64,000 nucleotides of DNA from an uncultured Phycisphaerales bacterium (GCA_963755915.1 CAVWLP010000002.1:3520001-3584000), one strand, 5' to 3'. Shown: positions 16,404 through 37,918, counted from the first letter of the stretch. Numbers and translations: made by a program. Notes: generated by a model not told the origin, from the letters alone.

Positions 16404-16643
16404 GAGTGTGATATTGAGCCAAGGGAGATTGAGCTATGGGAAATTTCGCTAAAATCAGGGGTGTACCCTCATTATTTCGCAAATAGCGCTTAGCTCAAAG
16501 TCGCTTGGCTCACATTCGCTCTCACGGTGCTGTCCTAAGCAACGCCCGTCCGAGCAGTGAAGATTGGAGGCCGAATGTCGCAATAAGCTGTATTTAATAT
16601 GGTCATCATATACGTTACAGATAAACCTTTTTGATCGCATCAA

Positions 16644-17356: not shown

Positions 17357-17399
17357 TGCGGATTTTCATGTTATATTGATCGCAACGGGAGTAAATGCA

Positions 17400-19404: not shown

Positions 19405-20277
19405 CTAGGCATCCGCTGCAATGCTTTGGCCGCGAATCAGGTCCGATGCCCGCTGGGCAGCACCAGCCGCGACGATAACCAATCGTTTGTCGCTGCGGAT
19501 CGTCTTTAACCATCCCGCAATGTAACTCGCCTGATTGTCGATGACCGATGGGTTAATACCCGCGTGGCCACACAGGAAAGCGGACGCCATTTCGGCAACC
19601 AATTCCTCGCGGCCGTAGTCGGATGAGCCAAAGGGTTTGGGTGCAGTATCTAGCTTGCGATCCAGCCGCTTACTATGGCCAGTGCTATGAGCCAATTCGT
19701 GAAACAGGACCGAATAATATTCCTCACCGGACGTGTAGCGCGTAGGTTCGGGCACGCGAACTAAATCGACAGCCGGGCGATAGAATGCCTGATTACCCCC
19801 ATGCTCGATTGTGGGCGGATCGGCGTAGGTTTTGACGATTGCTTCCGCCGCTTCCAACGGTTTGAAGTCAATGGGCTGGAATAACTTTGCATCGGGCGGA
19901 TTGATCCCCTCGCATTGTGCCACGTTGAATACGTTGAAGTATCGCAAGACGGGGATTGTTTTCGGCTTGCCGGTTTTCTCATCCGTGATTGCGTGTTGCT
20001 TCCAGAATACAACCATTGTCGATTTCTCACCCTTGCGAACCGATCCGCCGCGATTCTTAGCCTGATTGAATGTGAGCCAATACGACGATTCATAGCCGTG
20101 AGCGAATGCTTTGACGGCCAGTAGGAACACGTTGACGCCGCGATAGGCTTTGCCGCTTTCCAGATTCATTGGGTGTCCGGCAGTGCCCCGCCCCAGAATC
20201 GGATTGCGCCAAGGGACAACGCCATTATCCAGCATCCGGACAATTTGATCGGTGATTTCCTGATAAAGATCGAACAT
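19405..20277 (-). CDS. ardC: ArdC-family ssDNA-binding antirestriction protein
   Basis: 'LYQEITDQIV..L..GVVPW', 'YRGVN', 'WLTFNQA...GGSVRKGEK', 'HELAHSTGH', 'YGREELVAEM', 'ASYIAGWL'. Confidence 0.9.
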   Translation of the reverse strand: MFDLYQEITDQIVRMLDNGVVPWRNPILGRGTAGHPMNLESGKAYRGVNVFLLAVKAFAHGYESSYWLTFNQAKNRGGSVRKGEKSTMVVFWKQHAITDEKTGKPKTIPVLRYFNVFNVAQCEGINPPDAKLFQPIDFKPLEAAEAIVKTYADPPTIEHGGNQAFYRPAVDLVRVPEPTRYTSGEEYYSVLFHELAHSTGHSKRLDRKLDTAPKPFGSSDYGREELVAEMASAFLCGHAGINPSVIDNQASYIAGWLKTIRSDKRLVIVAAGAAQRASDLIRGQSIAADA

Positions 20278-20966
20278 TGCATTTCCTCCAGTTAGGACAA
20301 CTTGACTCCAATTTGTTCCTGTACCCATTCGACAATGCACGAATCACAGGCTTGGACGTGACAACCACCGATGGTGCTTCCCGCCGTAATCTGGTCGCAT
20401 ATTCGGCAGTGTGTTGAATCGTGCTGATTGACGATCCGCATTTGTTCCGCGAATTCAGTGTTTTGCCTCGCGATCAATTCCGCCTCGATTGCGGCTGCGT
20501 CGGCTAGAAATCCCGCGTGTGCTGTTTCGTGTTGCATTTGACCCTCCGTTGTTTGTGGTAATTGCAAGACAGATATGCAACACAATTCGTCCGTAGTCAA
20601 ACATGTATTGCGATTATTTAGTTAACAATCATTCGTGCGCGGTGTGTCAGCGGGGCGATTGTTTGGGTGGGGTCCAACCTTGCCCATGACCATGCCGGGT
20701 GGGGCTGGAATCCGATAGTCGAAAAACGGATACGCAAATTCCAAAAATGACTTTCAGTCGGACATTCGGCAGACACAAACGTAGCCTACTCATCCCGGTA
20801 GGCATCGAATCCATTTTTAGACCCCCACCCCGTCGGAATCTGACTCGCAAAATAAATATGCGAAATTTTGGGGCTGTTATCTCACATTGCCGTCAGACGT
20901 GACATTCAATTCACGCAAGCTCGATTACGGGAGATTGAGGATTTGCTGAAGTTGATTGACTGAGGC

Positions 20967-21470
20967 GTGGTAGGATACGGAGCCATTAAACGCCACCACC
21001 CAATGTTGATGTTGCTTATGTCATTTGCGATGGCATTCATCTTCGCAATCGCATGGGTCATCGTCATGACGTTGACATTGCCCGCGACGGATGAAATGCA
21101 TGGACAGATGCCCTTTGCAGACCCGCTTGTCTTTCCGATCATGTCAATTGGGGCATCAATAAGCGCTGTTCTCACCTTTCCATTCTTTTACTTTTCCCTG
21201 CGCGACCGTCCGCTAAATACATCCGTTTGGATAGTCGTTGGGACTGTGCTGGGAGAAATCGTAATCGTTGTTCCAGTAAACGCGGCAATGGGGCTTCTAG
21301 GATCATTTTTGGCGTTCGGCATCGGAATATATCTAGCCAGGAAATTCACCAAATCCATGATATCCGCAGGCCATTGCGTTAAATGTGGCTACGACCTCCG
21401 GGCCACGCCCGACCGTTGCCCGGAATGCGGGACAATCCCGCCGCCGAAAAAAGAAATCACCGCAACATGA
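20967..21470 (+). CDS. Cassette 1: membrane protein with C-terminal Zn ribbon ([19 protein letters not shown])
   Basis: About 4 TM segments, then [33 protein letters not shown]. Confidence 0.8.
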
Positions 21471-21596
21471 AGTATTCCCACAACGTCGCGTTGCGTTTCA
21501 CGCACCTCAACTATCGCCGGATTCACCAGACGCTTCGCGTCACGCCAGCCATGCAAGCCGGGCTGGCCGATCATGTTTGGGAGCTTGAGGAATTGG
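21384..21596 (+). repeat. 213-bp cassette repeat, copy 1 (Zn-ribbon 3' end + IS1 transposase 3' fragment)
   Basis: Near-identical to 22092-22304 and 22750-22962. Confidence 0.95.
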
Positions 21597-21634
21597 TGAA
21601 TCTGATCGGCTAAAGTGCGTTATGATTACAGGCA

Positions 21635-22178
21635 ATGAAACGCTTGCACAAATTGCCACTCAAGGCTGCTGTGGCGATATCGCTGGCTTTGAATATAGCA
21701 TGTGTTGCGGCATACGTTTTCGGCGGAGCAAACCGACATATAACATTCGGTGACGCAACGCGCGGCTCTAAAAGTCAATATGACTTTGAGGTTGACCACA
21801 AAGCGTTCACCGTTAGCAAAAAAATTGGAATTGACCACATCCCGGCGGGCGCACGGTTTCGGACAAAAGAACCGGTTCTCCGTACAATTAGACGATTGGT
21901 ATATCTTTACGAATTGGCACGTCGGAAGTGAAATTGCCGGAGAGTATCCGGATGAAGATAGAGGCATCCACCTAATTTCCGCCCGCGTGCCCTTGTGGTG
22001 GCCTCTAATTCTAACAACGATACTACCCTTTGGTTGGATGACCTCATCGGTTCTCCGGCGACGCCGCGCCAGACCGGGCCATTGCACTTCTTGCGGCTAC
22101 GATCTCCGCGCCACGCCCGACCGATGCCCGGAATGCGGGACAATCCCGCCGCCGAAAAAAGAAATCACCGCAACATGA
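21635..22178 (+). CDS. Cassette 2: membrane protein with C-terminal Zn ribbon (one frameshift near 21850)
   Basis: N-terminal TM in ORF 21635-21931; C-terminal TM + [21 protein letters not shown] in ORF 21750-22178. Confidence 0.75.
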
Positions 22179-22304
22179 AGTATTCCCACAACGTCGCGTT
22201 GCGTTTCACGCACCTCAACTATCGCCGGATTCACCGGACGCTTCGCGTCACGCCAGCCATGCAAGCCGGGCTGGCCGATCATGTTTGGGAGCTTGAGGAA
22301 TTGG
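22092..22304 (+). repeat. 213-bp cassette repeat, copy 2
   Basis: Offset 708 bp from copy 1, with a few SNPs. Confidence 0.95.
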
Positions 22305-22339
22305 CGGGGCTGATCGGCTGAGCGCGGTACAATTCCGCA

Positions 22340-22836
22340 GTGAATCGGTTCTGCCGATGGCTACTCAACGGGCTCGCCGTAGCATCATCGCTCTTGTGCT
22401 TGGCGTCCGTCTTTGCTTGGGTTAGCAGCTATCACGCCGAAAAGAGCTTTGCGCTGCCTTTCGGCGCTGGTCCGTATTGACATTTGCAAATGGCGATATG
22501 GAAGGCTTCTGGACTGGTCCTGATTCTCGATTCGACAGCTTCAGCGGCGGCTTCAGGATAAGTCATTATGAATCTTTTGTTGGCAGTCTGGATGGACGGA
22601 CAAGAGGTCCCGAATATCCCGGCGTCGCGTATTGGTCTTGGGTAATACATGACTGGTTCATCGTGACCGTACTCATAGCGCCAGCAGTGGGCTTATTTAT
22701 CCATCGTTTCCTTGCAAAGAGAATCACATCAGATGGTTTTTGTTTTCAGTGCGGCTACGACCTTCGGGCCACGCCCGATCGATGCCCGGAATGCGGGACA
22801 ATCCCGCCGCCGAAAAAAGAAATCACCGCAACATGA
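22340..22836 (+). CDS. Cassette 3: membrane protein with C-terminal Zn ribbon (one frameshift near 22475)
   Basis: GTG at 22340 gives MNRFCRWLLNGLAVASSLLCLASVFAWVSSY; continues in ORF 22477-22836 ending [21 protein letters not shown]. Confidence 0.75.
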
Positions 22837-22962
22837 AGTATTCCCACAACGTCGCGTTGCGTTTCACGCACCTCAACTATCGCCGGATTCACCAGACGCT
22901 TCGCGTCACGCCAGCCATGCAAGCCGGGCTGGCCGATCATGTTTGGGAGCTTGAGGAATTGG
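22750..22962 (+). repeat. 213-bp cassette repeat, copy 3
   Basis: Offset 658 bp from copy 2. Confidence 0.95.
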
Positions 22963-22967
22963 TGGGG

Positions 22968-23327
22968 CTAATGAACTGAGGAAGCAGACATTGTTTCAAT
23001 GAACCGCGCGACAAACTTTCTTTCATCGCTAAGTGTTGCTCCCCTCACTTTCGCTCGCAGTTGATTTATTTCCCAAACGACCGATTGTTCAATCGGAGAA
23101 TCCAGTTTAAGCCGCAATGCAAGGATTTCCTTCTCCAACCATTCAAGACGCGCCGCCTCTTTATCTCGCCAATGTTTGCCAGCGAAAGCTCCCCTGGGAC
23201 GGAGCGCCCGTATAGCGGCTCTGGAAAACTGGCCGTCAAGGCAAGCCCGGAAGGCGGCGATGGCCGTGTCTCGGTATTCACCCTCCATTTGTTCAAGCCG
23301 TTTTAATAGCCGGTCGGCCTTGGCCAT
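22968..23327 (-). CDS. Hypothetical helical protein (terminal cargo of element A)
   Basis: 119-aa ATG ORF between the last repeat and the right TIR. Confidence 0.6.
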   Translation of the reverse strand: MAKADRLLKRLEQMEGEYRDTAIAAFRACLDGQFSRAAIRALRPRGAFAGKHWRDKEAARLEWLEKEILALRLKLDSPIEQSVVWEINQLRAKVRGATLSDERKFVARFIETMSASSVH

Positions 23328-23462
23328 GATATGCCCCTGTTGTCCACCACCGGCATTCTAACTGATTCTGTGATTATTTTTCAAACTGACCCACTACCCG
23401 AAATCGGGTATTGGTATATTCTGGAGCCATCGAAAAATAAATCTTTGCGGTAGAATCCCGGC

Positions 23463-23675
23463 ATGAAAAAGCCGAAGCGCTATGACGTTGCCCAAACCGC
23501 CAAACGGATCGTTGACCAGACCATAGCTGAGCATGAGAAGCCCCTCCCGCCCGGCATAGAGGCGGCATGGGAAGAGTGGTCGCGAGGCATAGGGAAAGTC
23601 GATGCGAGGGGCATGTTGCTGCTCAGGGCAGCGTTTGATGTGGGGGTGAAGGCGGCAACGCGAGAAAGCAAATAA
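23463..23675 (+). CDS. Small left-end protein of element B
   Basis: 'RYDVAQTAKRIVD' resembles 'PRDPNQLAKMIVD' of the element C left-end protein; TAGAAT -10 just upstream. Confidence 0.6.
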   Translation: MKKPKRYDVAQTAKRIVDQTIAEHEKPLPPGIEAAWEEWSRGIGKVDARGMLLLRAAFDVGVKAATRESK

Positions 23676-23681
23676 GCGGCA

Positions 23682-24811
23682 TTATTTTTCTGCGTGCCGA
23701 TATTTGTTTACTTCCGGTTCGATGGAATTCCAGGTAGCGATTATCTTGTTGAAGTGATTTGCCAATATGCCGTCTTTGTCTAGGGCGGCAAATGCTTTCA
23801 TCTTTCCATCTACACCGCCGTTCGTAATTTCCATCAGGGCATTTCTTCCGTGAACGATTGCGTATCCGATAACGTCCCTAATTGCTCGCGAGTGTGCCTC
23901 GCCGTCCGTGTACCGAGCAAATTGGCAGACAGTGTCGAAAGCCCGTGTCGCCCGACGTTCTGGTGGAGGGTGCGTGGAACCATCTAGGTCGTTCGGATCA
24001 ATCCCCTCAGCGAACATCCAAAACATGATGAGTACGGCAAAGGCCCAATCGAACACTATTAGGACAGTCGGGCTGACAATATGATCGCCCCTTTGGAGTA
24101 AAGGACGAACATTTTGTTCGTAATGTGTAGGATGCTGAAGGCCGCGCATAAAACTGGTGATGGCGGCATACCCGTCGGTGCTCGTTTCGATGCTTGCATC
24201 TTGAGGTTATCAGCGGCCTTCGATCCCTTCGCGTAAAGCTCCATGAGGAATGGTAGATTGTTTTTGGCCGCATATTCGGCGTGACCAAACGTGATGTGTG
24301 CCAGTTCATGGTAGACCAAAAATTCAACCGCGTGTTCCGCAAGCAATTCGGCGTAGCGTTTTCGACCGGGGTCTATGGGAGCCATTTCGGCCAATGATTC
24401 GCCCGTGCGCCGTCCGCTTAATAACAAGGTTTCATAGTTACTCCAAAGTCCGGGGAGGCTTCGCGCTGTCTCCACCGTAGCGTCACCTGTGGTGCCCATC
24501 GCTTTCGGATGTGCCATTATTCTGTAAAACGTGTCGTATAGCAGCGGCACGGTAGCAGTGAAAATGCCAATGATTCCCGTATGTGATGGGCGGTCGTATC
24601 CGGCATTGAGGTTGAAATCCGGGTTCTCAACATAGCCAAATTCGATCTGCGGCATTTGCGTATTACGGGCATTAATATGCCCCTGAATGAGCCTCTCTGC
24701 TTCCTTCAGGTTTAACGTGCGCAGGTCGTTCGCGGCTGTGTCGTGTGTGCTTGGATCGGGCTTTTGCAGTGGAGCAAACGCCTGATCGAAGATTTCTTTT
24801 GGGGTTGGCAT
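23682..24811 (-). CDS. HExxH metallopeptidase-like cargo (Lit/peptidase U49-like?), frameshifted near 24150-24200
   Basis: 'FLVYHELAHITFGH' in ORF 24059-24811; 'THPPPERR' in ORF 23682-24149. Confidence 0.5.
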
Positions 24812-25129
24812 TTCGCCACTTCGTTATTTACAAGGAGTCTAATGACCACTGCTGAGTTTTCTGATTTGGAATTACGAATTGCCATTGCAAAATCGCTGCC
24901 GTTTGCTTGGAAGAATATTCACATGCAGGACGGCAACGTGGTTGGCTGGGTTCAGGGAGGAATCTCAGAGCGCCCGATCTCCATTCCGCACTGGACCCGC
25001 AGTTTGGCGGACGCGAGGTTTTTGGAAGAAATGATGCTGTCTCGCTTCCCAAAACAGTATTCATTGGGCCTCCATTCCTTGGGCGTTCGTGTTGGCGCGG
25101 CTTCCCGCGCCAAATTTGCGAAGCCGCAC

Positions 25130-25339
25130 TTATGACTTTGCAGTCGTCCGCTTCCCCGGCTTAGCCTTTTTGTTCAGCTTGTCTTCAGCAAACCCCAACA
25201 GAAGCGGCCTAGCCCAAGTTGCAACGTCCGCCCCGTCCGCAGCAGCGGCCTCAGAAACAATTTTCTTCTGCTCCTCTGTAAGCGGAATCCGCAACTCTTC
25301 GCTTTTCCGCTCCGACGGGTCTTTGTGTGGTCTTGCCAT
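25130..25339 (-). CDS. Ribbon-helix-helix-like small regulator, divergent from the transposase
   Basis: 'MARPHKDPSERKSEELRIPLTEEQKKIVSEAAAADGADVATWARPLLL'. Confidence 0.7.
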   Translation of the reverse strand: MARPHKDPSERKSEELRIPLTEEQKKIVSEAAAADGADVATWARPLLLGFAEDKLNKKAKPGKRTTAKS

Positions 25340-25422
25340 GCTGATTATTATAGCAATAAAAATCTGAGTCGTCAAGGATTTTCCTTTACTCATTGATTAC
25401 TATTGCTATAATAATCAGCATG
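25337..25422. promoter_or_regulatory. 22-bp perfect inverted repeat forming twin divergent leaderless promoters/operators
   Basis: CATGCTGATTATTATAGCAATA (25337-25358) and TATTGCTATAATAATCAGCATG (25401-25422); each arm has TATAAT and a start codon. Confidence 0.8.
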
Positions 25423-26638
25423 TACAAACTGACCACGAATGAGCGGGCGCAAATCCTTGCGGCTCTGGTTGAAGGCGTCAGCATCGCCTCTATCTGCCGC
25501 ATGTACGGCGTGAACAAAATCACTGTGCTCCGGCTACTGGCCGACGCCGGAACGCTCGCCGCTCAATATCACGATTTGACCGTTTGCGACATTAAATCGC
25601 GACGAATTCAATGTGACGAAATTTGGGCATTCGTGGGAGCGAAACAGCGCAATGTTCCCGAAGAAAGTCGCGGTCAATTTGGTCGTGGCGATTGTTGGAC
25701 TTGGGTTGGCATTGACGCGGACAGCAAGCTTGTCGTCTCCTATATGCTCGGCCTGCGTGACGGCGGATACGCCAAGGACTTCATGTGCGATCTGGCCAGC
25801 CGACTTGCCAACAAGGTTCAGTTGACCACCGATGGCCTCAGCGTCTATCTGGACGCGGTTGACGATGCCTTTGGCGGCGACATTGACTATGCCCAGCTTG
25901 TGAAGATTTACGGCCCCACAAAGGCCGATCCGGGCCGCTACAGCCCGCCGCAAGTCATCGGCGCTGTAAAAGAGACGGTATGTGGTTCACCACAACCGCG
26001 CCACGTTTCCACCAGCTATATCGAACGCCAGAACTTGACGGTTCGAATGGGCAATCGGCGCTTTACCCGTCTGACAAACGCGTATTCAAAAAAAGTCGAG
26101 AACCATGGCCACATGGTTGCGCTGCAATACTTCCATTACAACTTCTGCCGCATTCACATGACTATTGAATGGCGATTTGCCATATGGAGCCGCGGCGACA
26201 TACGGATTCACTGTAACGGACTCGGCGGGCACTTGCAGAGGTAGTACCAACTCAACTTGCACTGGAAATAAAGCCACAGGTAATGGTAATGGCCAGATTG
26301 AAGGTAACTTTAATGGTGGAATCGATCTATCGCGCATTTCCAATATGGGAACGGCCAGCAACCTCTGGCACGCAGGTGGGAGAAAGGCGAGGGAGGCAGG
26401 TGCGGTCACAGATAGCAACCGCGTGCTGTGACTCAGTCGTCGTCAGCCATTCAGATGATAGGCGCCTGGGAGCGAAAAGAAATCAAAAACTCCCCGGGCG
26501 ACCGATGTTTCACTGGCGTGTCAGTACGGACGTTACTGCCATCGGATGATTCGGGCGTTGCTGAGGAAAGAAAGATTCGTTGTGTGGGCGATATGTGGAG
26601 TGCACTCCAGACACCGCGCACCTAAGCTTTGCATCCAT

Positions 26639-28867
26639 TCATCTTCTCCTCCGCCGCGCCAGCGCTCCGAGACCGGCCATTGCGAACAGTCCCAGGCAGG
26701 CCGGCTCGGGTACCGCGCCAATCATGGGCAAAGGCAAGCCGTTGGCGATGGCAAACGCGTCCAACGCCGTGATATCTGCCGTGGATACGCTTGTATCTGC
26801 ACTGCTGTCGCCCTGCCCGAAGTTGGTGGCGAGGGCGGAGAAGTCGGAGCCGTTCACGGATGAGCTGAAGAGGAAATTCCCCTGGTCCCAGTTGGTGACG
26901 CCTTTGCCGAAATTGGCGGCGAGGATGCTGAAATCGCTTCCGTTGACAGTGCCGTCGAGATTGGCGTCGCCGAGAAGCGTGTACTTCAATTCGATCTCAC
27001 CCGACGGCAGTCCGGAGACGATTTTGTCCGCGCCGTCGGCGAAGCCGACGCCGTAGTGGAGGCCGTTGGTGAGAGACTGGGCGTTGGAGGAGATGATGCC
27101 TGGGCCGTTCCAGTTTCCCCCGTTGTAGCCGCTCTTGATGTAGCCGGCGATTGAGGAGATTGGATCGCTTCCCGAGCCGTAATCGATGAATAGATGGGTG
27201 TTAGTCAGGTCCAGCGTCGCGCTGATGCTCAACGACGCAAGAGTCTGAACCGAGTGAATCTGCACTGTTCCCCCGGTAATTGCAACGGGGCCGGTTGGAT
27301 CAAGGGTAGCGCCCATATTAAAGACCGATGTTCCACCGGTGAAGTTCACCGCGCCCGCGCCGCCGAGCGTGCTGGTAGCGGTAAAGGTATGTCCGCCGGA
27401 CAAGTTTAATGCCGCTCCGCCGCTGACGGTGAAACCGCCCGATTGACTGCCTCCTCCTGTCAGTGAAAGTGTCCCGGTCTGGACGTTTACCTGGCCACTG
27501 TTGTTGAATTCCGTTTCCATGGTCGTCGTGCCGGTGCCGACCGATTTTGTGAAGGTGCCAGCATTATTGAATACGTCAGGGACAGTGGAGGTTGAGCCGC
27601 GTCCATCGTAAGTATTGTTCCCTTGTAGGTTGAAATTCGCGCCCGATAAATTGTTGAAGGTGGTGTTCTGGCCAGATTTATTATTGCCTTGCGCCTCAAT
27701 GTTGCCGCTGGTCCAATTGGCCGTAGCGGAATTATTGATTGTGGCCTCGGGGCTCAAAACCGGTGACCCGCTAAAGGAGATGCCGCCGTTGGCGGTGAGG
27801 GTCTGGGTGTTGGTGCCACTGCCGAAGGTTCCGCCGGTCCAGGTGAAAGTCCCACTGGTAGTGATTGTGTCCGAGCCGGCGAGGGTGCCACCGCTGAGCG
27901 CGAGGGCTACGAGGCTATCGGTTTGGCCCGTGTTGAAGTTAACCACCGCAGCGATGCCAATTGCAGTGTTCCCGGCGCTGTCGCCGGAGCCGGTGTTAAA
28001 GTTGTTGGTTCCACCAATGAACTGAACAGTACCGGACCCGCCAATGCTGCTGCCCGTAAAGCTAAAGGTTCCCTGCTCGTATAGCTCGAGAACTGCTCCG
28101 CCACTGATCGTAAAATCGCCCGTTGCGCTACCTCCTCCATCAAGGTACAACGTCCCATTTTGCACGTTCACCTGACCGGTATTGTTAAATTCGGAGGTGA
28201 TGATCGTCGTCCCGGTTTCGGGGGACTCGGTAAATGTTCCGGCATTGTTGAAAACGTCGGGATTTCCGGCGGTCGAACCGTTTCCGCCGTAGGTGCCATT
28301 GCCCGGTATTGTTACATTGAAGTTGGCGCCGGCTAGATTGTTGAAAATGGCGGCACCCTCGCCGCCGCTGTTGCCGGTGCTAATGCTGCCGCTCTTCCAA
28401 GTGCTTGTGCCGGAACTGTTGAGTGTTGCGCCGTCAAATAAGAATTCGTTCATGCCATTGAAGTTAACCCCGCCGACATTCACCGTAATTTGGTCGTTCA
28501 ACCCATCTCCAACCTCGCCACCAGACCAGTTAAAGACACCATTAACCGCCAACGTACCCGGCGTCGATGCACTCTCGGGCACAATGGCGCCGCCGGCCAT
28601 GCTAAGCCCATCAATGGTTGGATTTACGCCTAGCGTGATCGACGGAGCCCCATCGGGAATGGAGACCGTGTAGAGTGAGCCGGGTGGATTACTGTTGTCG
28701 GGATAATATGGATAACTGGACCAATCGTTGGCGTCAGACCAACTGCCCGAGATGCCGCTGATCCATTCTGCGGACTGGCCGCGTGCGGAATTTTGAAATC
28801 CGCTAACCAGCCCAAATCCAATAACCGCCAGTACCAGAGCGCACGTGCGATTGACGGGCTTAAACAT
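26639..28867 (-). CDS. Large secreted beta-helix/autotransporter-repeat-like protein with dockerin-like module and PEP-CTERM
   Basis: Signal peptide, Gly/Asn/Thr-rich 'FNNAGTFT' repeats, GDANLDG, VPEPA + TM + RRRR. Confidence 0.85.
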   Translation of the reverse strand: MFKPVNRTCALVLAVIGFGLVSGFQNSARGQSAEWISGISGSWSDANDWSSYPYYPDNSNPPGSLYTVSIPDGAPSITLGVNPTIDGLSMAGGAIVPESASTPGTLAVNGVFNWSGGEVGDGLNDQITVNVGGVNFNGMNEFLFDGATLNSSGTSTWKSGSISTGNSGGEGAAIFNNLAGANFNVTIPGNGTYGGNGSTAGNPDVFNNAGTFTESPETGTTIITSEFNNTGQVNVQNGTLYLDGGGSATGDFTISGGAVLELYEQGTFSFTGSSIGGSGTVQFIGGTNNFNTGSGDSAGNTAIGIAAVVNFNTGQTDSLVALALSGGTLAGSDTITTSGTFTWTGGTFGSGTNTQTLTANGGISFSGSPVLSPEATINNSATANWTSGNIEAQGNNKSGQNTTFNNLSGANFNLQGNNTYDGRGSTSTVPDVFNNAGTFTKSVGTGTTTMETEFNNSGQVNVQTGTLSLTGGGSQSGGFTVSGGAALNLSGGHTFTATSTLGGAGAVNFTGGTSVFNMGATLDPTGPVAITGGTVQIHSVQTLASLSISATLDLTNTHLFIDYGSGSDPISSIAGYIKSGYNGGNWNGPGIISSNAQSLTNGLHYGVGFADGADKIVSGLPSGEIELKYTLLGDANLDGTVNGSDFSILAANFGKGVTNWDQGNFLFSSSVNGSDFSALATNFGQGDSSADTSVSTADITALDAFAIANGLPLPMIGAVPEPACLGLFAMAGLGALARRRRR

Positions 28868-28945
28868 CTCCCCTCCCTTTTTGAAGACGTGGTGGCTCCT
28901 TCGATTGCTAATGTTTTTCTATAAGGTCCGGAAAAACTCGCTTAT

Positions 28946-30627
28946 CCGGGATTTCCCATATGACACTCCGCCCACGAACGTCGCCGGCAATTTTGCGTAG
29001 CATACCCAAGTCAGGAGCGAGGATCAAGTGTTTTCTTGGCTCCCCACCGTCGCAATCCCGAAGATTTGTACGGCCTTCCCCTTCATTTTGTCACTTCCGG
29101 CAGGCTTTTCGATGCCCTGCGAACAGACTGCCACCGTTGCCCCAAACATTTCGCAAGCTTTTCACGCTGTCCGTTGTCATCCCGATGCCGCCATCGGCGA
29201 GTCGAAGTCGCCGGATTCTTGCCAGGATCAGCCGGAACAACTCGCGGGGAACCGCCACCTCCGCCATCTGGAACACCACCGACCGGGCGTGATGCACCAC
29301 TTTCGCCCCGATCTTGATCAGTTTCTCCCGCAGCGTGGTCAGCGACCAGTGCTTTACGCCAACGGGCAACGCCAATCGCCGCAGGAAGTTCCCCAGGTTG
29401 TAGGCCAGGGCGAACAGTTGCAGCCGCACCTGATTGTCGGCGAAGTCGTGGCAACTCAGCCGCGTCCAGTTCACCGCATTCTTGCCTTCCTTGATCCACT
29501 GCTCCGCCGTTCCGCGACCGTTGTAAAACCACACCACGCTGGCGGCTCCGCCGCCCAGGTTGGTGACGATGAAGCCGACGCGGGGAAACAATTCGCCCTG
29601 ATGCCACTCGACCTTGGCCACGACACGACGGGCCTTGTCCCAACTGGCGGCCTGATACATGAAGTCGTGATACCAGCACGATGGGCTTCTTCGGCGGGCG
29701 ACCCGACCGGGCGCTTCAGCAGGTGCTCGATTTCCCGCTCCAGCAGGCTGTTGGACTTCAGGCGGATCGCATAGCCGTAATCTTCGGCTTCCAGAAACAG
29801 ATACAACTCGGGAATGGCGAATGCCGCATCACCGCGAAAGAACTTCTTCACCGTCGTTGTTCGATAGCGGGCGACCACCGGCTCCAGCACCGATCGCCAG
29901 TCATCGGCACTATGGACATTGCCGTTGCGAAGCAGGGCGCGTTCCAGGTCTCCATCCTGATTGAAACAGAACAACGGATGGTAGCAGGTGCATTCAAAGT
30001 GGCCGTTGTACGCCGAGCCTTCCTGATGGCCGTGCGTCTCGCTCACCGAGCTATCCATATCGAGGATGATCCGGTCGCCGGGCTTGCGCTGCCGCAACCC
30101 GTCGATCCATTGCCCGGACAGGTCGGTCAGGACTTTCAGATTGCCTGGCTGCGTCAGCACGTCGGTCTCAAACCGGCCCATCTGGCTGGTGGAGGCGGCG
30201 GTGCGTTCCCTGGCTCTCCCGCCCACGACCTGCCGCATCGTCGGATCAACCGCCAATCGTTCGGCATCATTGGTATCCTCGTAACCGGCCAGGCGGCTGT
30301 AGATCGACTGACGCAAAAGCCCCACCAAAGTGTGCTGGATGTTCTTTCCGGTGCGCCAATCCTGGAGCAGCGTGCCGGCCATTGTCGTCAAGCCCAGCGC
30401 CTCATCCAGTTCCCGGTAGACCAGCAATCCCGCGTCGCTGGTCACTCTTCGAGCCGTGGAATTCGAGCTTCAAACTGCCGTCAAAACCCACCCGAAGAGC
30501 GTCCTTGCTGCTTTCACCCATTGGATTCTCCGGACTTCATGTCCTGAATGTCGAAAAAGAGCCTGATTTGTGCGGCCAAACGACAAACCACTATACGTGA
30601 AGTCCACTGCCATCTGGCAAATCCGGG
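28946..30627 (-). mobile_element. IS1380-family insertion sequence
   Basis: Imperfect IRs CCGGGATTTCCCATATG (28946) and revcomp CCCGGATTTGCCAGATG (ending 30627). Confidence 0.9.
29091..30521 (-). CDS. IS1380-family transposase (frameshifts near 30447 and 29680)
   Basis: 'TSDAGLL.YRELD', 'GYEDTNDA', 'LDMDSS', 'YHPLFCF', 'RGDAAFA', '[15 protein letters not shown]'. Confidence 0.9.
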
Positions 30628-30864
30628 TTGAAACAACGCCAGCGGTAAAGGCAGGCATCGCCGACAAGGTTTGGACGATGGTTGATTTTGTGAAGATGCT
30701 GGAGCGTGAAGAGGGCTTGCTTGGCGGTCGGTTGACGAACTACAAGCCGAATGTTCCGAAAAAACGGGCATATTGAGAATATACCAATACCCGAAATCGG
30801 GTAGTGGGTCAGTTTGATTCCTCGAAAGTTTGACGCCAAACGCAACTTGTGGCAAGGTTCATCC

Positions 30865-31101
30865 ATGCTTAAACGATCAAGAATGCCCCGCGATCCTAAC
30901 CAGCTTGCCAAGATGATCGTCGATATGGCCACGGGGAACGCCCCAGCCGAACCCGCTGGCCCGGCGAAGAATCCGGCGGCGGTCGCGCTGGGAAAGCTGG
31001 GGGGACCAAAGGGCGGCACTGCAAGGGCAAAGGCGCTATCGCCTAAGCGGCGGAAAGAGATTGCCAAAAAGGCGGCGGCGAAGCGGTGGGGAAAGGCTTA
31101 A
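30865..31101 (+). CDS. Small basic left-end protein (KNPAAVALG..GG.KGG.ARA motif)
   Basis: 'PRDPNQLAKMIVD...KNPAAVALGKLGGPKGGTARAKALSPKRRKEIAKKAAAKRW'. Confidence 0.8.
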   Translation: MLKRSRMPRDPNQLAKMIVDMATGNAPAEPAGPAKNPAAVALGKLGGPKGGTARAKALSPKRRKEIAKKAAAKRWGKA

Positions 31102-32242
31102 TCGCGAACAATCCTCATTCGCACCCCATCACTGCTCCAAGCCGGGGCATCCGCATCTGCAAGCATCTGAGCAACATCTCGCTCTGTTACGAACAATAGG
31201 TCTGCCAAATCCTGACGAGAATACCCGGCTTCAATATGTTTGCGTAATAGATCACTAAAAACCCTGGGGGTCTCCCCCTCGATCGCCACCGGTTCGGTTT
31301 TCCGCCAACCCTTTCGCGACAATTGAACAAATATTGATTCGTAACGCCGGTCATCAATGGCACCGATCGCTTTTGCGCGAAATGCGATCGCCTGCATTGA
31401 CACCCGCCATTTCCGTTTCAAGGTTGCCAAATCCGCCAAGGCGATTCCCGGACGAACATCACGCCGAAAGTCCTTTTCGGGCATCAAAAAAGCCGACGCA
31501 AACGCGTTGGCTTCGCGCTCTGCATCCTCCGGCCTCCGATCCTTTCCAAAGTGCATTACTGTATGCCCCAATTCGTGCGCGAGACTGAATCGTGTTCTAT
31601 CTGCGGGCTTTGCTCCGTTTAAAAAGAACAGCTTGGGCAATTCGGGCACCCATCGACAAAGCGCATCAATTTCCTCAACTTCGAGATGGCGGTCGATAAC
31701 GATTCCACCATGCGCCTCTATCCGTTCAACTAAATTCGGCAACGGGCCAGGCGGTATGTTCATTGCCACGCGGGCCATCGCAGCGACTTTCTCGACATCA
31801 CCCGCTTGGTTTTCGGGATCAATTTCCGGAATTCTGTCCGGTGCGATTTCGGTTAATCGTAGAAGGCGATCAATCTGGATATCAACGATGCTGCATCGGG
31901 CATGCACCGCCTTCACATGAGAACGCTTCGCGCAGAGAGGGCCCGATGGTAGAAATCGGACATGCTGGCCAGCCTTCGCGGTCGATCAACGAAGAAGAGA
32001 TCAACTTGTACGCCAAGGGTATCGGCAAGCAAAAGAAGCTGCTCATTGTTCGGACTTGAAAGCCCGGCCTCCCATTTGCCGATCAGCGGCTGACTCACCT
32101 TGATTGTTTCTGCTAGATTGGATTGGGACAGCGCCCGAGCCTCGCGAGCGGTCACGAGCATATCCGGATTGAATCTATCGCCTACGAAAGTGTCCTTTCT
32201 GGCGCGCACTATTCCTAATGAGCGGCGTTGCCTATCTTCCAT
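31098..32242 (-). CDS. XRE HTH + ImmA/IrrE-family metallopeptidase (frameshift near 31920)
   Basis: HTH 'AREARALSQSNLA..IKVSQPLIGKWEAG'; 'RFSLAHELGH', 'EREANAFASAFLMP'. Confidence 0.85.
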
Positions 32243-32254
32243 GATTCCTCTGCC

Positions 32255-32899
32255 TTACGCGGATCGCGCTATCCTCATCTCATTGATCCGATCGGCCAAG
32301 AGGGTCGGCAAACTTGCAATTATCTGGCCATCCGCTGGCATCAGCGGATATCTCCAAAGCCATCGCCTACGGGTTGTAACTCCGATTACTGATTTTGTCA
32401 CCTGCTCTTCAACGTCGTCAAGGTCGAACCCAACCGTAACCCAAAGGCGATCCTCCATCTCTATCGCTGGCATTTCCGGGAAGGGCATACGAAGCTGACC
32501 AATCGACCAGGTTGGCGCGTTGATGTGCTTCTGTCTGTCGGTCCCGTAACTCGAAGGCATGCCACGTCGGTTTGCCCTCGTCCGTTTGATACGAAAAGCA
32601 AGGTAGGGGTCAAGGGTGATTTCTGTGGACTTCGTATTTGAGTGAATCGTGTACCGCAGCGTCGGCAATGCCGGCGAGATTGCGCTGATCAAATCGCGGG
32701 CGGCACTGGCGATTCGATCATAGAGCATATTCGATTTTGTGATCGGGCCGTAGTCGGGGAAACCAGAAGGGTCGAGAGATCGACTGATCTTGTATCGGTG
32801 AAACCCTTCGTCAACGGATTCGCGAAGCAGGCTCGGGACAACTGCCCCAATCGCCTCCATGATCGCCGCGTCTTCATCCTTTCCAAACGGTATTTTCAT
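32255..32899 (-). CDS. Hypothetical protein upstream of XRE-ImmA (possible partner toxin)
   Basis: About 214-aa ORF co-oriented with and adjacent to the ImmA gene. Confidence 0.6.
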   Translation of the reverse strand: MKIPFGKDEDAAIMEAIGAVVPSLLRESVDEGFHRYKISRSLDPSGFPDYGPITKSNMLYDRIASAARDLISAISPALPTLRYTIHSNTKSTEITLDPYLAFRIKRTRANRRGMPSSYGTDRQKHINAPTWSIGQLRMPFPEMPAIEMEDRLWVTVGFDLDDVEEQVTKSVIGVTTRRRWLWRYPLMPADGQIIASLPTLLADRINEMRIARSA

Positions 32900-33013
32900 G
32901 GACACCCACTATAGACAAATGGAGGGGGCCGAGTCAATAATCTGCGAAATTTTATTACGAATTCTATTACAAAAGGCTTGCAAATGCCTATACGTTCAAG
33001 TATAAGGGTCAGT

Positions 33014-33838
33014 ATGAACAAGCTAAGCACTGCTGACCGGGTTCGCGTGATTTCGGCTCTGGTGGAAGGATGCTCAATCCGTTCGACCGTGCGGATGACA
33101 GGCGTTGCGAAGAACACCGTCATTAAACTGCTGTTGGAAATCGGCGAGGCGTGCAAGGCTTACCACGAAGAACACGTCTGCCACTTGCTGACCAAGCGCG
33201 TTCAGTGCGACGAAATTTGGGCATTCGTGTACGCGAAGCAAAAGAACGTGCCGGAGCCGATGAAGGGCGAATTCGGCGTTGGCGATGTCTGGACGTGGAC
33301 GGCGCTCGATTCAGAATCCAAACTCATCATCAGCTACATGGTCGGTCTACGCGATGCCGGGTATGCCCACGAATTCATGCGTGACGTTGCGAGCCGATTG
33401 GCTCGCAAGGTGCAATTAACCACCGATGGATTGAGCGTGTACCTTGACGCAGTGGACGATGCTTTTGGCGGGGATATTGACTACGCCCAACTCATCAAGA
33501 TTTACGGCGCTGATAAGTCTGGCCCAGGCCGATACAGCCCTCCCGAAGTTACTGGCATTCGGCAAGAAGAGGTCTGTGGATCGCCCGAACCCCGCCATAT
33601 CTGCACCAGCCACGTCGAACGGCAGAATCTGACGATGCGGATGTCGATGCGGCGATTTACGCGGCTGACGAACGCTTTCAGCAAAAAGGTTGAGAACCAC
33701 GCGGCGCAAATTGCCCTGCACTTCATGCACTACAACTACTGCCGGATTCACCAGACGCTTCGCGTTACGCCGGCGATGCAAGCTGGGCTGGCCGATCATG
33801 TTTGGGAGATTGAGGAATTGGTGGCGCTGATCGACTGA
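33014..33838 (+). CDS. IS1-family DDE transposase (274 aa, single ORF)
   Basis: N-terminal [39 protein letters not shown]. Confidence 0.95.
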
Positions 33839-33859
33839 GGCCAGGTATAATCCTGGTGG

Positions 33860-34393
33860 ATGAAACAGGCTTGGCGATGGCTGTTCAGCGCACTGGCCGC
33901 ACTTTCGCTCGCGATGTTACTGATCACGGCGTTTTTGTGGAGCGTCCAGTCGCACCACCGGATCAACTTCGGATTGTTCGGCCATCCGATTGAGGTCTGG
34001 ATCGGTCCTCGGACCTACGGCGTGGTGGTGCGCATCTACGCGACGGGAACAGTGATGATGCCGTGGCATTACGTTGGGCCCTCGGTTACAGGAGTTGACA
34101 CTGGTTCCTCCAGTCAGCTTCACTTCGGAATGTGCTGGGGCGCGGGGTACCAAATTAGCAACTTAACCGCGAATAGTCCGAACCCAGCGGCGGCCCAAAC
34201 CTGGCGCCAACTTCAACTATCCTTTCTTTATCCCTTCACCCTGCTCGCGTTGGCGGCCGGTCTCTTCGGGTATCTAAGCATCAAGATGCGCCGAGCAGCG
34301 CCTCTGGGACATTGCGTCAGATGCGGCTACGACCTCCGCGCCACGCCTGGCCGTTGCCCGGAATGCGGAAAAATCGTCGAAAAAACTATTTAA
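33860..34393 (+). CDS. Membrane protein with C-terminal Zn ribbon (same family as cassettes 1-3)
   Basis: 2 TM segments + [29 protein letters not shown] upstream; stop abuts the right TIR. Confidence 0.85.
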   Translation: MKQAWRWLFSALAALSLAMLLITAFLWSVQSHHRINFGLFGHPIEVWIGPRTYGVVVRIYATGTVMMPWHYVGPSVTGVDTGSSSQLHFGMCWGAGYQISNLTANSPNPAAAQTWRQLQLSFLYPFTLLALAAGLFGYLSIKMRRAAPLGHCVRCGYDLRATPGRCPECGKIVEKTI

Positions 34394-34465
34394 TTTCAAA
34401 CTGACCCACTACCCGAAATCGAGCAAACTTGACAACGGAAATGGCGTTTTCACGCGGTGCCCCGT

Positions 34466-34783
34466 TCAATTCGTTGACCATTCCGCTCTGTCATTCGTCC
34501 ATCGCACATCCGGGTACTTGAAGGTTAATTTCTTGCGGAGTTCGCTTAACGGCGGGAATCGATGGCCGTTACCCGACGCACTTCGCCATGTTTTGCAGCC
34601 GTGATCGGCACACAGGCGGGCAAGAGCTTTGTCAGTGTATAAGTCTAATCCGCCGAAACTGCGGAGATAGAAATACAGCCCATGCGAGTAACAACGGTCC
34701 GGGTGCTTTGCCGATTCCAATGCAGGTAAAACGCCACGGTCGGCAAGCTGTACAAACGCCTCACGTGTGGGATTTGTTTCCAT
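34466..34783 (-). CDS. Hypothetical protein
   Basis: 105-aa ATG ORF downstream of the primase. Confidence 0.4.
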   Translation of the reverse strand: METNPTREAFVQLADRGVLPALESAKHPDRCYSHGLYFYLRSFGGLDLYTDKALARLCADHGCKTWRSASGNGHRFPPLSELRKKLTFKYPDVRWTNDRAEWSTN

Positions 34784-35413
34784 CGCCGGGCGTAGTTCGC
34801 GAGCGTCATACGGAATTTCGCCACTGAAAATTATTTCGTTGGGCGCGGGAGAAATGACCAGTGACCATCACCTTCAGGCGTTACTTCCAATTCAAGAGCC
34901 AAGCCGCGTCGTATATGTTGGTATTCGTCCGGTGAGCAAACGGCCAAACTTGGCGCATCTGCGTTCTTAGACATTTGCGTATCGTGATAAATTGCGAAGT
35001 GCCAATACGGTTCAAGCCAGCGGCCGCGCTTCACGATGTAAGTTGGGACGGCTCGGAAGTTTTTCAAGGTTTCCGGCACATCAGGCGTGTACGGGATTCT
35101 CAGCGCCAGCCCGAACCAAGCCGTGATGATCAACGCGCATATCTTGCCGCCACGAATCCTATCAGGGAGCAACGTGTAGCACGTGGCGATCTCCAACGTC
35201 GTAGCTTCATGCGTCGCGCAGAATTTGCGGATTGCGTTCGCGTTTTCACGCCCTTGTGTTTCGTAGCAGGAAGGCCGGTACACAATAAAATCTTTGTCAG
35301 CTTTGATAATCACGCCACGGGAAGGCCCAAAACCCAGAACAAGATCGGCTTGATAATCCGAGCTGTTTGCGGCGGGGCCGGTAGATGTTGCGTTCACAGT
35401 TCTATCCAAAGAG

Positions 35414-37918
35414 TTACTCGGCGGGTGGCATGAGGGTATCCCTGAAAATGAATTTCCGACCCTCATTCGTGCGGTCGCTCGTGACTTCAATTCCCACCGA
35501 CTTTAATGCTGGAATTACGCGATTGATTGCATTTGCTAACGCACTGGCCGAGCCAGGGCATTGTTGTCGCGGTACGTCGGCAATTAATGGCGGCAAGTGT
35601 GTCAGAAGTTTTGCGCACAGTCCTTGCCACTCTCGAAGCGGTTCTTTGCCGCCCCTCAAGAGTTTGATGAGAGCTTGAGCGACGGGCGATGCTTCCAAGG
35701 CCAACGATGCGGCTTCGTTTAGGTTGTCTTTGTACGCTTGCATGAAACCGCCCGCTTTCCACGGCAGCGCCGGTTCGGCGGCTACAACCCACTTTGCAAA
35801 GTCGGCCATACGCGGCAGGTCTCTAATTGTCACAGTTGGTAAATTCTTCAAGGCGCACGATACGGCATCTAGCAACGCACCAAGAATACGAGGGCGGGCC
35901 TTTTCAAACTCACCCTCAATCTCTTCTTTGGTTTTGCGCGCACCATTTGGAACAGGGGCGACTTTCAAGATCAAACAACGATCCAAGAAATCTGCTCGTG
36001 TGCTGGCGTCGGAAATACCGTTGAGAACAATCATCCGCGAAGCCCGCATTATTTTTTCGTCATCATCGGCGTAAAGCTCTCGTTCGGCCTGTCCAGCGCC
36101 GGTGGAAATTCGGCACATGCCGTCTGCCATTTCAGCCGAAATGCTCGACACATTATCGAAGCCCAACATCCAATTATTCTGCGCCGAAATCATCAGCCCG
36201 CGTAACTCTTTAGGTATTGATCGCAGTAATGCTTCATTCGGATCGATACACGCCCGGAAGAATTCGCAGCTACTACTCTTGAACGCTCCGTGCAATCCGG
36301 TGACACAGACGATCGGATAGGGGCCCGTCGGGCTGAACGCCATTACGAGCGCGGAGACAAGTAGGCGAAATGTTCCATCGTTCTTGATGTCTTTTGGTGG
36401 AATCGGTGTGTTGATAAACGGACGCAACTCCTCGACGCTCCCGCCGCGCACCGGCAAAGGCAGGGCTTTGTATCCCGATTTTCGCACAAATCGGACGGGC
36501 GGATCACCTTCAAGAATTTTCCACCCATCAGCAGATATTTCAATTACCCGGTGATGTTCATCCCCCAGGTCCAGATATATTTTCCTCTCATACGGTCCGA
36601 TTCGCACAAAGACTTTGTGTGATTCGCCCTCATACTTCGCCGCGCCCTTCAGGACGTTGAGCGCATCGGCTAAGGCTTGTGCGCCGGGGACTATTTGGAA
36701 ATGGCGGTGATAGCGACGTGATAACCATTCACGAAAAGTTTTGCTCTTGAGTTGACACGTTTCCGAACCCCGTTCTGTTTTAAATTTCGCATACTCGCTG
36801 TCCCCACTGTGGAAAAGTTCAACCCCTTCTTTCGCTGCGAGTTCAACTAGGAATTCGGCTTGGGACCGTTTTTCCGGCGACGGAGTATAGACTTTTGTCG
36901 TCGCGGCGATGGCGTTCGCGATTGTGTTTTGACCATAGGTCTTCTCGCCGTGCTGTTCATCCCACTTGGCGCGCATTCGTTTTGTTCCGCGAAATATCCA
37001 ATCCATTTGCCCGGCATTTTTGCCGGTCCAGAATGCGAGCATTTTGCCGAACTCAAAATCACCGCCGGACTTTGATTTGTCTTTTTTCAATACGCTGTCA
37101 TCGCCGTTCATCAGAGCAATGAACTTTGGGCCGTTGCGCGCATTGCTCGCCAACTCAATGAGTCGTTCATCTTCGATTAACTGTGTACGCGGTGCCGCCG
37201 TTTCATGGGGTGTGGGTGGAGGTTCAAAGAACTTAGGGAAGGTCACCGCGACATCCGACGTGCCAATCTCCTCAATGGGTGGACCATACGCATTGCCTGT
37301 CACCGTGAAGAAGCGACCCGTCGTATAAACCTCAATCGCGCCGTCCGCATCACCATCTACTGATAATTTCTTTCGCGTCGGGTGCCGACTACAAACATCA
37401 TGCACCCAAAATTTAAGCCCGTCTCCGGATGGCGAGATTTCCATGTAGGCACCAGCGTTTTGTGTCGCACTGACGATGGGCTTGGCCCAAGCTTTCAAGG
37501 TCCGGTCGGGGTTGAAGCAATGGTCAAGGTCAATCCCCGTGAATTGCCTGCCGTCAAAGACAAAACCAATTCCAACGTAACTCCCACCTGAGAATGCCTC
37601 AATCGCGCCGTCAAAAGTTCCCCACGTTGCGGGATCTGTGCTATCCGCACACTCACCGTTGAATTGAAACAAGAGTTTCCGATGCGAGGGACCGACGTAC
37701 TTCCACACAACCCAATTGTTGAGCGCTCGCATTTCGGCGGGAACACGGGCGAGCCATCTTTTCACCATTGCGGGTTTGGGGTCGGGAAATCGTGGTCCGT
37801 TCGCGAACCGAAGCTTTGGATTCAAAAGCACGTCGATTAACAACGTAGGGGTCGGTTTGATTTCAACCAACTCACTTTCGTCAGTCTCATTCGCGGCCTC
37901 GGCAGAAACGGGGGGCAT
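35414..37918 (-). CDS. Primase-polymerase (NrS-1-like AEP) fused to P-loop helicase-like domain
   Basis: 'NWVVWK', 'ADSTDPATW', 'GIDLDHC', 'YMEISPSGDGL', 'RFFTVTG'; Walker-like GLHGAFKSS, 'FDNVS', 'RELY.DD.E'. Confidence 0.85.
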   Translation of the reverse strand: MPPVSAEAANETDESELVEIKPTPTLLIDVLLNPKLRFANGPRFPDPKPAMVKRWLARVPAEMRALNNWVVWKYVGPSHRKLLFQFNGECADSTDPATWGTFDGAIEAFSGGSYVGIGFVFDGRQFTGIDLDHCFNPDRTLKAWAKPIVSATQNAGAYMEISPSGDGLKFWVHDVCSRHPTRKKLSVDGDADGAIEVYTTGRFFTVTGNAYGPPIEEIGTSDVAVTFPKFFEPPPTPHETAAPRTQLIEDERLIELASNARNGPKFIALMNGDDSVLKKDKSKSGGDFEFGKMLAFWTGKNAGQMDWIFRGTKRMRAKWDEQHGEKTYGQNTIANAIAATTKVYTPSPEKRSQAEFLVELAAKEGVELFHSGDSEYAKFKTERGSETCQLKSKTFREWLSRRYHRHFQIVPGAQALADALNVLKGAAKYEGESHKVFVRIGPYERKIYLDLGDEHHRVIEISADGWKILEGDPPVRFVRKSGYKALPLPVRGGSVEELRPFINTPIPPKDIKNDGTFRLLVSALVMAFSPTGPYPIVCVTGLHGAFKSSSCEFFRACIDPNEALLRSIPKELRGLMISAQNNWMLGFDNVSSISAEMADGMCRISTGAGQAERELYADDDEKIMRASRMIVLNGISDASTRADFLDRCLILKVAPVPNGARKTKEEIEGEFEKARPRILGALLDAVSCALKNLPTVTIRDLPRMADFAKWVVAAEPALPWKAGGFMQAYKDNLNEAASLALEASPVAQALIKLLRGGKEPLREWQGLCAKLLTHLPPLIADVPRQQCPGSASALANAINRVIPALKSVGIEVTSDRTNEGRKFIFRDTLMPPAE

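Follow-up and report, generated by a model that had tools for sequence, protein, structure and literature searches.

Mobile elements that come to rest beside one another are known from several systems. In Tn7-like stacking at attTn7 and in tandem islands at tRNA sites, the determinant lies outside the insertion point and survives it, and the elements pile up in one orientation. A passage of PMC9333248 describes how the insertion sequence (IS) IS30 integrates beside its own inverted repeats (IRs), giving a new IR-IR junction with a strict left-to-right (IRL-IRR) orientation, and likens this to the 'targeted' transposition of IS911. Translocatable units of IS26, as treated in part of PMC4196232, integrate preferentially beside a resident IS26. 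Here we describe a head-to-tail train of IS1-like cargo transposons, called A, B and C from left to right, in a 64,000-nucleotide stretch of DNA from an uncultured Phycisphaerales bacterium (GCA_963755915.1 CAVWLP010000002.1:3520001-3584000). This whole stretch is called the window, and positions are counted from its first letter. On balance, we lean towards the view that the train arose by successive insertions, in the same orientation, into one 8-bp target directly outside a resident right end.

The ends, joints and octamer copies of the train are these:

23381-23398, plus strand: right end of A, TCAAACTGACCCACTACC, the same sequence as at the right end of C
23399-23406, plus strand: octamer copy 1, CGAAATCG
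23407-23422, plus strand: left IR of B, GGTATTGGTATATTCT
30776-30791, minus strand: right IR of B, the reverse complement of GGTATTGGTATATTCT
30792-30799, plus strand: octamer copy 2, CGAAATCG
30800-30817, plus strand: left IR of C, GGTAGTGGGTCAGTTTGA, the complement of TCAAACTGACCCACTACC
34396-34413, minus strand: right IR of C, TCAAACTGACCCACTACC, the reverse complement of GGTAGTGGGTCAGTTTGA
34414-34421, plus strand: octamer copy 3, CGAAATCG
34428-34434, plus strand: CTTGACA in the host flank, which puts TTGAC at +16 to +20 from the tip

A preliminary description of this DNA had proposed a train of three cargo transposons in the same orientation, with a copy of CGAAATCG at each joint. The placements are as it had them, since each of the three plus-strand copies abuts the tip of a perfect terminal IR, and the orientation also stands, with the transposase genes of B and C both on the plus strand. 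As to the units themselves, only C is an intact transposon; decay has left a mere remnant of A, and B is defective. The octamer by itself is not enriched in the window: the two strands together hold 8 matches where 6.3 are expected, and at least 8 were reached in 27 of 100 shuffles. The feature that goes beyond chance is the placement at three repeat tips. The 18-mer end has three matches in the window at up to 3 mismatches, all exact, where 0.02 are expected; the 16-mer end has two exact matches and one 3-mismatch match at 28178, where 0.09 are expected, and the match at 28178 is probably due to chance. The polarity of the octamer is identical at all three joints and does not alternate. Contigs from two public soil runs of separate studies, X2 and X3, bridge the joints: one from X3 spans A|B (23186-23472, 0 differences) and one from X2 spans B|C (30354-30937, 13 differences). 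Thus, the train structure is real, and it is present also in a slightly diverged strain.

The octamer had been taken for a target duplication shared by successive insertions, and tabulation of the 8-mers that flank C-type ends bears this out. The genome holds 11 copies of the C-type end at up to one mismatch. Three are those of the train, flanked by CGAAATCG; the other eight have eight different flanks, none of which is CGAAATCG. At the tips of relatives in the same genome there are 8-bp duplications of CGGCGATT, CAATATTA and GTTTGGGG, and in other genomes of GAGATGGC (genome G050) and GGACAGTC (genome G001). Exact 8-bp duplications flank five complete relatives, and a sixth (locus L128) agrees at 7 of 8 bases. 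Since CGAAATCG is absent at the eight other C-type ends and relatives carry other octamers, comparison indicates that it is an 8-bp target duplication common to the members of the train and not part of the end. CGAAATCG is not tied to the repeat elsewhere, and other copies do form tandems, the reverse of the two outcomes that had been named beforehand as fatal to the proposal.

The comparison brought up two more trains. The one in G050 begins with a decayed right end (2 mismatches, with the tail of a zinc-ribbon gene); then come GCCATCTC, an intact element of 2.6 kb, a second copy of GCCATCTC and the host flank. The same layout, made by a third IS species with the repeat GGTACTGGTATCATTTG, the octamer AGTTTCGT and a transposase that is 54% identical, occurs elsewhere in the genome to which the window belongs (G000), at C2:4182096-4184873. 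The three trains, that of the window included, offer four junctions, two of which lie in the window. All four are head-to-tail with the more decayed element on the left in element orientation, and in all four the intact element adjoins the host flank.

Abutted ends were then sought more widely. Of 24 other genomes in the family, 18 contain the 18-mer; it is absent from all 16 genomes that represent other families in the class, and a reversed-pattern control gave 0. A third family match to the junction, in G100, was dropped for want of an IS-like arm. A species scan, with one genome per species and the right end, 8 nt and GGTA as the query, returned at least 117 stretches from many phyla, including Acidobacteriota, Actinomycetota, Alphaproteobacteria, Planctomycetota, one Mycobacterium and others. 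Among the 117 listed, the 8-nt spacer leads into an IS1-like end (at least 12 of 18 bases) in 70; the junction at L193 is the same as the G050 locus, maybe the same record, and was counted once. The other 47 lack an IS-like arm and form the chance class, the probability of GGTA being 1/256. This implies that about 12,000 ends were sampled and that, roughly, 0.6% of ends abut another end. Among the matches listed, a partner end was located in 50 of the 70 junctions, and the spacer is exactly the outer 8-mer of a neighbor in 30 of the 70. Both partner ends were located in 14 junctions. In 8 of these 14, no more than 1 mismatch separates the three octamers, and in 3 of the 8 they are identical (L210, AAAAACTC; L231, CGAACTTG; L247, CACTGCCT). 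The neighbors are of unequal length in 13 of the 14, so that they are not tandem duplicates.

In a metagenome scan for two C-type ends, spacers of 0-24 nt were allowed. The 84 abutted pairs have a spacer of 8 nt in 72 cases, 9 nt in 6, 5 nt in 3, and 6, 7 and 10 nt in one each; the distance between abutted ends is therefore the duplication length of the family. The octamers at junctions are very diverse in both scans, and junctions that join ends of different sequence are common. A within-phylum control of spacer length found 0 junctions in 401 genomes, an uninformative outcome, since this even sample shared no family with the 141-genome family search discussed below. Specificity for CGAAATCG itself, one of two possibilities raised in the preliminary description, has to be given up, since other trains use GAGATGGC, AGTTTCGT, AAAAACTC, CGAACTTG and CACTGCCT. 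The other possibility, targeting next to an existing end, agrees with the trains and the scans, in which elements recurrently lie a single target length away from a neighbor's end. On this comparative support from many phyla, the core inference appears right as targeting next to an existing end and not as octamer specificity.

We suggest the following course of events for the train. A, the most decayed member and the leftmost, would have arrived first, followed by B and then C. Each insertion would use the usual 8-bp staggered cut of the family and leave a fresh copy of the octamer at the right end of the newcomer; the regenerated octamer would let the next arrival re-use the same site, and the array would grow at one edge. 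The resident end may position the incoming complex, probably via transposase bound to it. Local help could come from an octamer with G/C ends and an A/T-rich center and, in the genus, from TTGAC 16 nt further out.

The train shares with IR-targeting by IS30 the insertion directly beside a resident IR and a spacer equal to the duplication length of the family. IS30 and IS911 differ in that they belong to the IS30 and IS3 families and transpose by copy-out-paste-in. In IS30 the junction is reactive and does not last, and a train has no common duplication at its sides; the junctions described here are stable enough to turn up at 70 of the 117 listed loci, the octamer stands on every side, and the neighbors may be unlike, cargo-bearing or non-autonomous elements. 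Like the cargo arrays of IS26, the train would be built by integration beside a resident copy. However, IS26 units share one IS copy, whereas the train units keep both ends and the 8-bp duplication is regenerated; IS26 units are not known to make a new duplication. Tn7-like elements and tRNA islands have a dedicated selector or integrase and a fixed site, whereas trains lie at varying sites and no selector protein is evident. The comparison with integrons made in the preliminary description survives only as an analogy. The train, too, strings small cargo units together with a polarity, its latest arrival lying at one end if the order given above is right, but it has no integrase, attI, attC-like site or common promoter; its units are bounded by transposon repeats, and each has its own ends and often its own DDE transposase. 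No description of IS1-family trains or end-targeting was found in the open-access literature, which omits older IS1 work.

Pure re-use of a hotspot is the alternative that deserves most attention. Here the octamer and the bases to its right, in this case CGAAATCG, 6 nt and CTTGACA, would be recognized, the right part would survive insertion, and the resident end would play no part. The target features come from 57 distinct right-end flanks of the genus, from which left ends, other IS species and interiors of the type found in miniature inverted-repeat transposable elements (MITEs) had first been dropped. Their octamer consensus is S-R-A-W-W-T-Y-S, which CGAAATCG fits. Of the 57, 15 have TTGAC at +16 to +20 and 24 have TTG at +16; each of the 25 other offsets tested gave TTGAC in 0-1 flanks. 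The right flank of C reads CGAAATCG, AGCAAA, CTTGACA; a further copy in run X2 has CTTGACA at the same place, and the G050 flank has CTTGCAG there. At C2:1389281 the motif lies inside the coding sequence of the transposase of another copy, which shows it to be a feature of the target, not of the element. Five flanks of two other genera (L038, L040, L042 and L020 of G015, and L095 of G017) have a different motif at the same distance, which reads GTGAAAT or departs from it by one base. The youngest-looking element always adjoins the flank, as re-use of a hotspot would have it, and spacers that start with CAAG or end with CTTG recur in the sets from other phyla. Against this, the summed information of the genus flanks is about 4 bits over 21 positions. 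Sequence preference alone is thus too little to explain the re-use of one site, and falls far short of what a return to it in a 6.6-Mb genome would take. The great diversity of the octamers at junctions also speaks against a hotspot, as does the absence of TTGAC from the AGTTTCGT train. The left octamer copy was never re-used in the four junctions scored, which an end-directed polar mechanism explains equally well. We regard pure hotspot re-use as unlikely, though still deserving of weight.

In another history, the A|C joint would have been at first the place where two ends abut in a tandem dimer, or in a circle that had integrated, and B would have entered the 8-bp spacer later. Without B, the end of A and the left end of C form a perfect 18-bp palindrome around 8 bp. 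Abutted-end IS circles and dimers are described for several families in part of PMC9333248, and IS1 circles are cited in the reference list of PMC12428005. Yet the interiors of A and C are unlike right up to the repeat, A has no transposase, and plain insertion predicts just such a third octamer copy as stands at the right end of C; the unequal neighbors and the frequent junctions of different ends in other genomes also speak against such an origin, which we consider improbable. A reading of the octamer as the core of a site-specific recombination site, or as part of longer IRs, with cassette exchange, is very improbable. It could draw on the near-palindromic form of CGAAATCG, on repeats that can be read as 26 bp with 92% complementarity, and on a tyrosine recombinase gene at 17376-18821. 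That gene lies outside the train, there is no attC-like repeat between the units, and each unit is bounded by two ends of its own and carries a DDE transposase. The uniform polarity of the octamer, its absence beside the eight other ends and the different octamers of other trains also count against this reading. Least probable of all is an assembly artefact that misjoined repeats. The assembly has a metagenome-type look (81% completeness, 8% contamination) and the region is repeat-rich, but the independent soil contigs bridge both joints, and both B and C are unique in sequence and have perfect repeats.

The insertion beside a resident end that we favor also has findings against it. The TTGAC motif and the octamer consensus show that sequence does contribute to targeting. 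The intact relatives L076 and L077 (G001) lack the flank motif, which counts against re-use of a hotspot as well. Junctions of this end type are rare near home, with 2 in 141 family genomes. As to orientation, a transposase match is present on both sides in only 2 of 143 junctions, one of them head-to-tail and the other apparently tail-to-tail; in the 67 one-sided junctions, the transposase-bearing partner shows its right end in 39 and its left end in 28. The order from A through B to C is read solely from the degree of decay. That the B transposase recognizes a C-type end is assumed, given that B has a different repeat and that its transposase is 64% identical to that of C. The right flank of C (34414-36400) had no DNA match in 12 other genomes of the genus, and no contig that skips exactly one train element was found in the Logan contigs of 4 soil runs.

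More tentatively, we propose that IS1-like transposases may have a dedicated end-directed mode of insertion across many bacterial phyla, which would bring a new element to the 8 bp outside a resident right end and make polar, self-extending cargo arrays, with the newest unit at a fixed edge. In such arrays the cargo might be regulators, membrane proteins and possibly defense genes, the decay of older members might leave stub modules, and, in the genus, the edge might be marked by a -35-like TTGAC that is also read by the complex. This behavior would be the opposite of target immunity, which is known for Tn7, Mu and Tn3. If resident ends attract insertions, gene arrays could be built without a site-specific recombinase, which would be a simple route to accessory-gene clusters and would account for stubs and solitary ends that pile up at certain loci. 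It would also extend end-targeting beyond IS30 and IS3 to a third and very widespread transposase family. In annotation, ends that abut at 8 bp should be read as trains and not as long palindromes.

The flanks and ends showed some further features. Left-end interiors carry GAATCYTC, 6 nt and TTGAC at positions 17-35, and by eye they match the flanks at 11-13 of 20 bases, which hints that the same protein may read the left-end interior and the flank motif. Descent of the right flanks from decayed left-end interiors of a lost neighbor was rejected: the register is one base off, with flank position 1 mostly C/G and not T, and no left-end small-open-reading-frame (small-ORF) homologue follows any such flank. 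No convincing -10 element was seen near TTGAC in the flanks read by eye. The motif of G015 and G017 starts as far outside the tip as TTGAC does, at 15 nt, and is followed by a part-palindromic stretch resembling CGTTCACG. Spacers of the form CAAGNGGC or GCCNCTTG recur in other phyla (L253-L336, L144, L145, L159, L189, L203, L236 and L238), which suggests a much stronger octamer preference in some lineages. The 16-18-nt end is conserved letter for letter across many phyla, one cultured Mycobacterium included (L136-L252); this suggests that the end has either spread widely by horizontal transfer or is very strongly constrained.

IS1 is the best family for the transposases of B and C. NCBIfam NF033558 (IS1) gives 58 bits for C and 52 bits for B against a curated cut-off of 100, with IS1595 next at 23 bits, and Pfam PF03400 gives 29.5 bits for C and 31.5 bits for B against a cut-off of 24.1, with only part of the profile matched. 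All 8,000 of the 8,000 candidates scored are homologues at E <=0.001. Among the 120 listed, named homologues are mostly 'IS1 family transposase', those few organisms that have names belong to the Planctomycetota, Tepidisphaeraceae among them, and most homologues of similar length match 100% of the query. The end tips are GGTAGTG and GGTATTG. The terminal IRs of IS1 begin GGnnnTG; classical IS1 shares with the train elements the repeat tip GGTnnTG and target octamers with G/C at the ends and an A/T-rich inside. The preliminary description gave low target specificity as a known trait of classical IS1. Like classical IS1 of E. coli, the train elements have a DDE transposase that matches IS1 profiles and an 8-bp duplication. 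They differ in having a single transposase ORF of 274-286 amino acids, without the InsA/InsAB' frameshift, and in their size of 3.6-7.4 kb with several passenger genes. InsA/InsAB', a programmed -1 frameshift and a zinc finger at the N-terminus are traits of the classical IS1 group and not of all members. No zinc-finger family was found in the B and C transposases, only below-cut-off helix-turn-helix (HTH) matches in the B protein. Within the IS1 family, the cargo-carrying 'transporter IS' form the ISMhu11-type group, a candidate group for the train elements. The trait of a cargo-carrying IS, passenger genes within one pair of repeats and one duplication, is found in C. Target duplications of IS1 are given as 8 or 9 bp in part of PMC12428005.

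C (30800-34413) is an intact 3.6-kb IS1-like cargo transposon with perfect 18-bp repeats, and its five non-transposase ORFs lie inside this one pair:

30814-31101, plus strand: small left-end ORF; tblastn 53-83% identity at related left ends (G000, L036, L076, L077 and others)
31098-32905, minus strand: cargo block of three passenger genes
31098-31916, minus strand: ImmA/IrrE metallopeptidase (Peptidase_M78 at 6e-20)
31913-32242, minus strand: XRE-type HTH protein (HTH_3 at 5e-11)
32255-32905, minus strand: ORF of 216 amino acids, function unknown, within the cargo block
32978-33838 (ATG at 33014), plus strand: intact transposase, 274-286 amino acids; Pfam DDE_Tnp_IS1
33860-34393, plus strand: zinc-ribbon membrane-protein gene; weak zinc-ribbon match, repeat family D3, many C-terminal paralogues

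The pair of XRE-HTH protein and ImmA/IrrE metallopeptidase matches RmrA (up to 7e-50) and the capP/capH models of the CapH/CapP regulators. The zinc-ribbon gene is the right-end cargo of C and is common to the A units.

B (23407-30791, 7.4 kb, perfect 16-bp repeats) is a relative of C whose transposase gene is split:

23463-23675, plus strand: small left-end ORF, 70 amino acids; tblastn 57-67% identity at C2:1252131 and C2:137883
23682-24811, minus strand: cargo ORFs of 155 and 250 amino acids, overlapping calls, function unknown, no Pfam family
25393-26169, plus strand: 5' part of the transposase gene, to about amino acid 259; Pfam DDE_Tnp_IS1, with HTH_23 and HTH_29 below cut-off
26170-30627, minus strand: insertion of 4.46 kb in the transposase gene, an IS1380-family element with about 3 kb of adjacent DNA
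26639-28867, in the adjacent DNA: gene of 742 amino acids, weak PEP-CTERM match (Pfam 17.9 bits, cut-off 20.7; NCBIfam 17.7 bits, cut-off 16)
29223-30629, within the insertion: IS1380-family element, transposase ORF 29471-30445 (NF033539 208 bits, PF13701 247 bits)
30628-30776, plus strand: 3' part of the transposase gene; tblastn 70-76% identity to the C-termini of B-type transposases, and by-eye alignment with an intact relative

One homologue of the left ORF lies near the left end of a complete B-type element (C2:1251771-1255025). The cargo of B includes a weak Lit-like stretch (E 0.003-0.006) of only about 20 residues. The homology to B-type copies ends at 26169, two other copies give 83% DNA identity as evidence for the insertion, and the insertion is flanked by TTGAA at 26165-26169 and 30628-30632. 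A contig of run X2 links 26166 to 30664 with 34 other letters between; it shows a B-like transposase gene without the 4.5-kb insert, though a side of only 25 nt is too short to assign it to a locus. ISEcp1-type members of the IS1380 family are known for one-ended mobilization of adjacent DNA with a 5-bp duplication. The IS1380 element and its 3 kb of adjacent DNA look like one unit moved in this manner. The gene of 742 amino acids is a member of a very large paralogue family.

The A array has the following parts:

20842-23380, plus strand: decayed array of 3-4 units, each a 3' transposase stub with a variable zinc-ribbon membrane-protein gene, and no intact transposase
21369-21611, 22077-22319 and 22735-22977, plus strand: 243-nt repeats, 93-94% alike (repeat families D1-D4, unit alignment)
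22968-23327, minus strand: ORF in the last unit

The stubs cover amino acids 244-285, 197-285 and 241-286 of the C transposase by tblastn. A cannot be kept as a transposon, since upstream of its right end there are only stubs and zinc-ribbon genes, and no left end that matches this right end was found in the window (18-mer, up to 3 mismatches). The 243-nt repeats frame unrelated segments of about 450 nt, which are N-terminal parts of zinc-ribbon membrane proteins, and in each repeat a zinc-ribbon C-terminus is fused directly to a 3' transposase stub with no IR between them. The interior of A is thus a cassette-like array. A joint from 22150 to 34389 in a soil run was rejected as a deletion allele, being a paralogous zinc-ribbon gene with a right end. 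More arrays of stub, zinc-ribbon gene and right end occur in G000 at C2:3505583-3509700 (14 kb upstream of the window), C3:1338962-1341984 and C2:1388574-1389954. In these three, right ends are present between units, and a 125-nt segment is repeated after four ends. Modules of transposase stub, variable gene and right end are abundant across the family, and A is one of them. Insertion alone leaves this abundance unexplained; deletions adjacent to the right end of an upstream element would give such modules. IS1 is known to make adjacent deletions.

The surroundings of the train (14346-20340 and 35414-37918) hold a primase-helicase-like gene (AAA_25 with an NrS-1 polymerase domain), the tyrosine recombinase gene, an ArdC-type antirestriction gene and a second NrS-1-domain gene, and the train looks to sit in an integrated mobile island. 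Elements of about 98 nt with the same repeats and a G+C-rich, hairpin-like interior (L057, L062, L081, L094 and L096) appear to be MITE derivatives of this IS group. In G001 (C4:325755-340876), L076 and L077 are near-identical and lie in direct orientation 8.7 kb apart, and CCATTTCA flanks both copies on the outside, which would fit a composite transposon that took the intervening DNA along.

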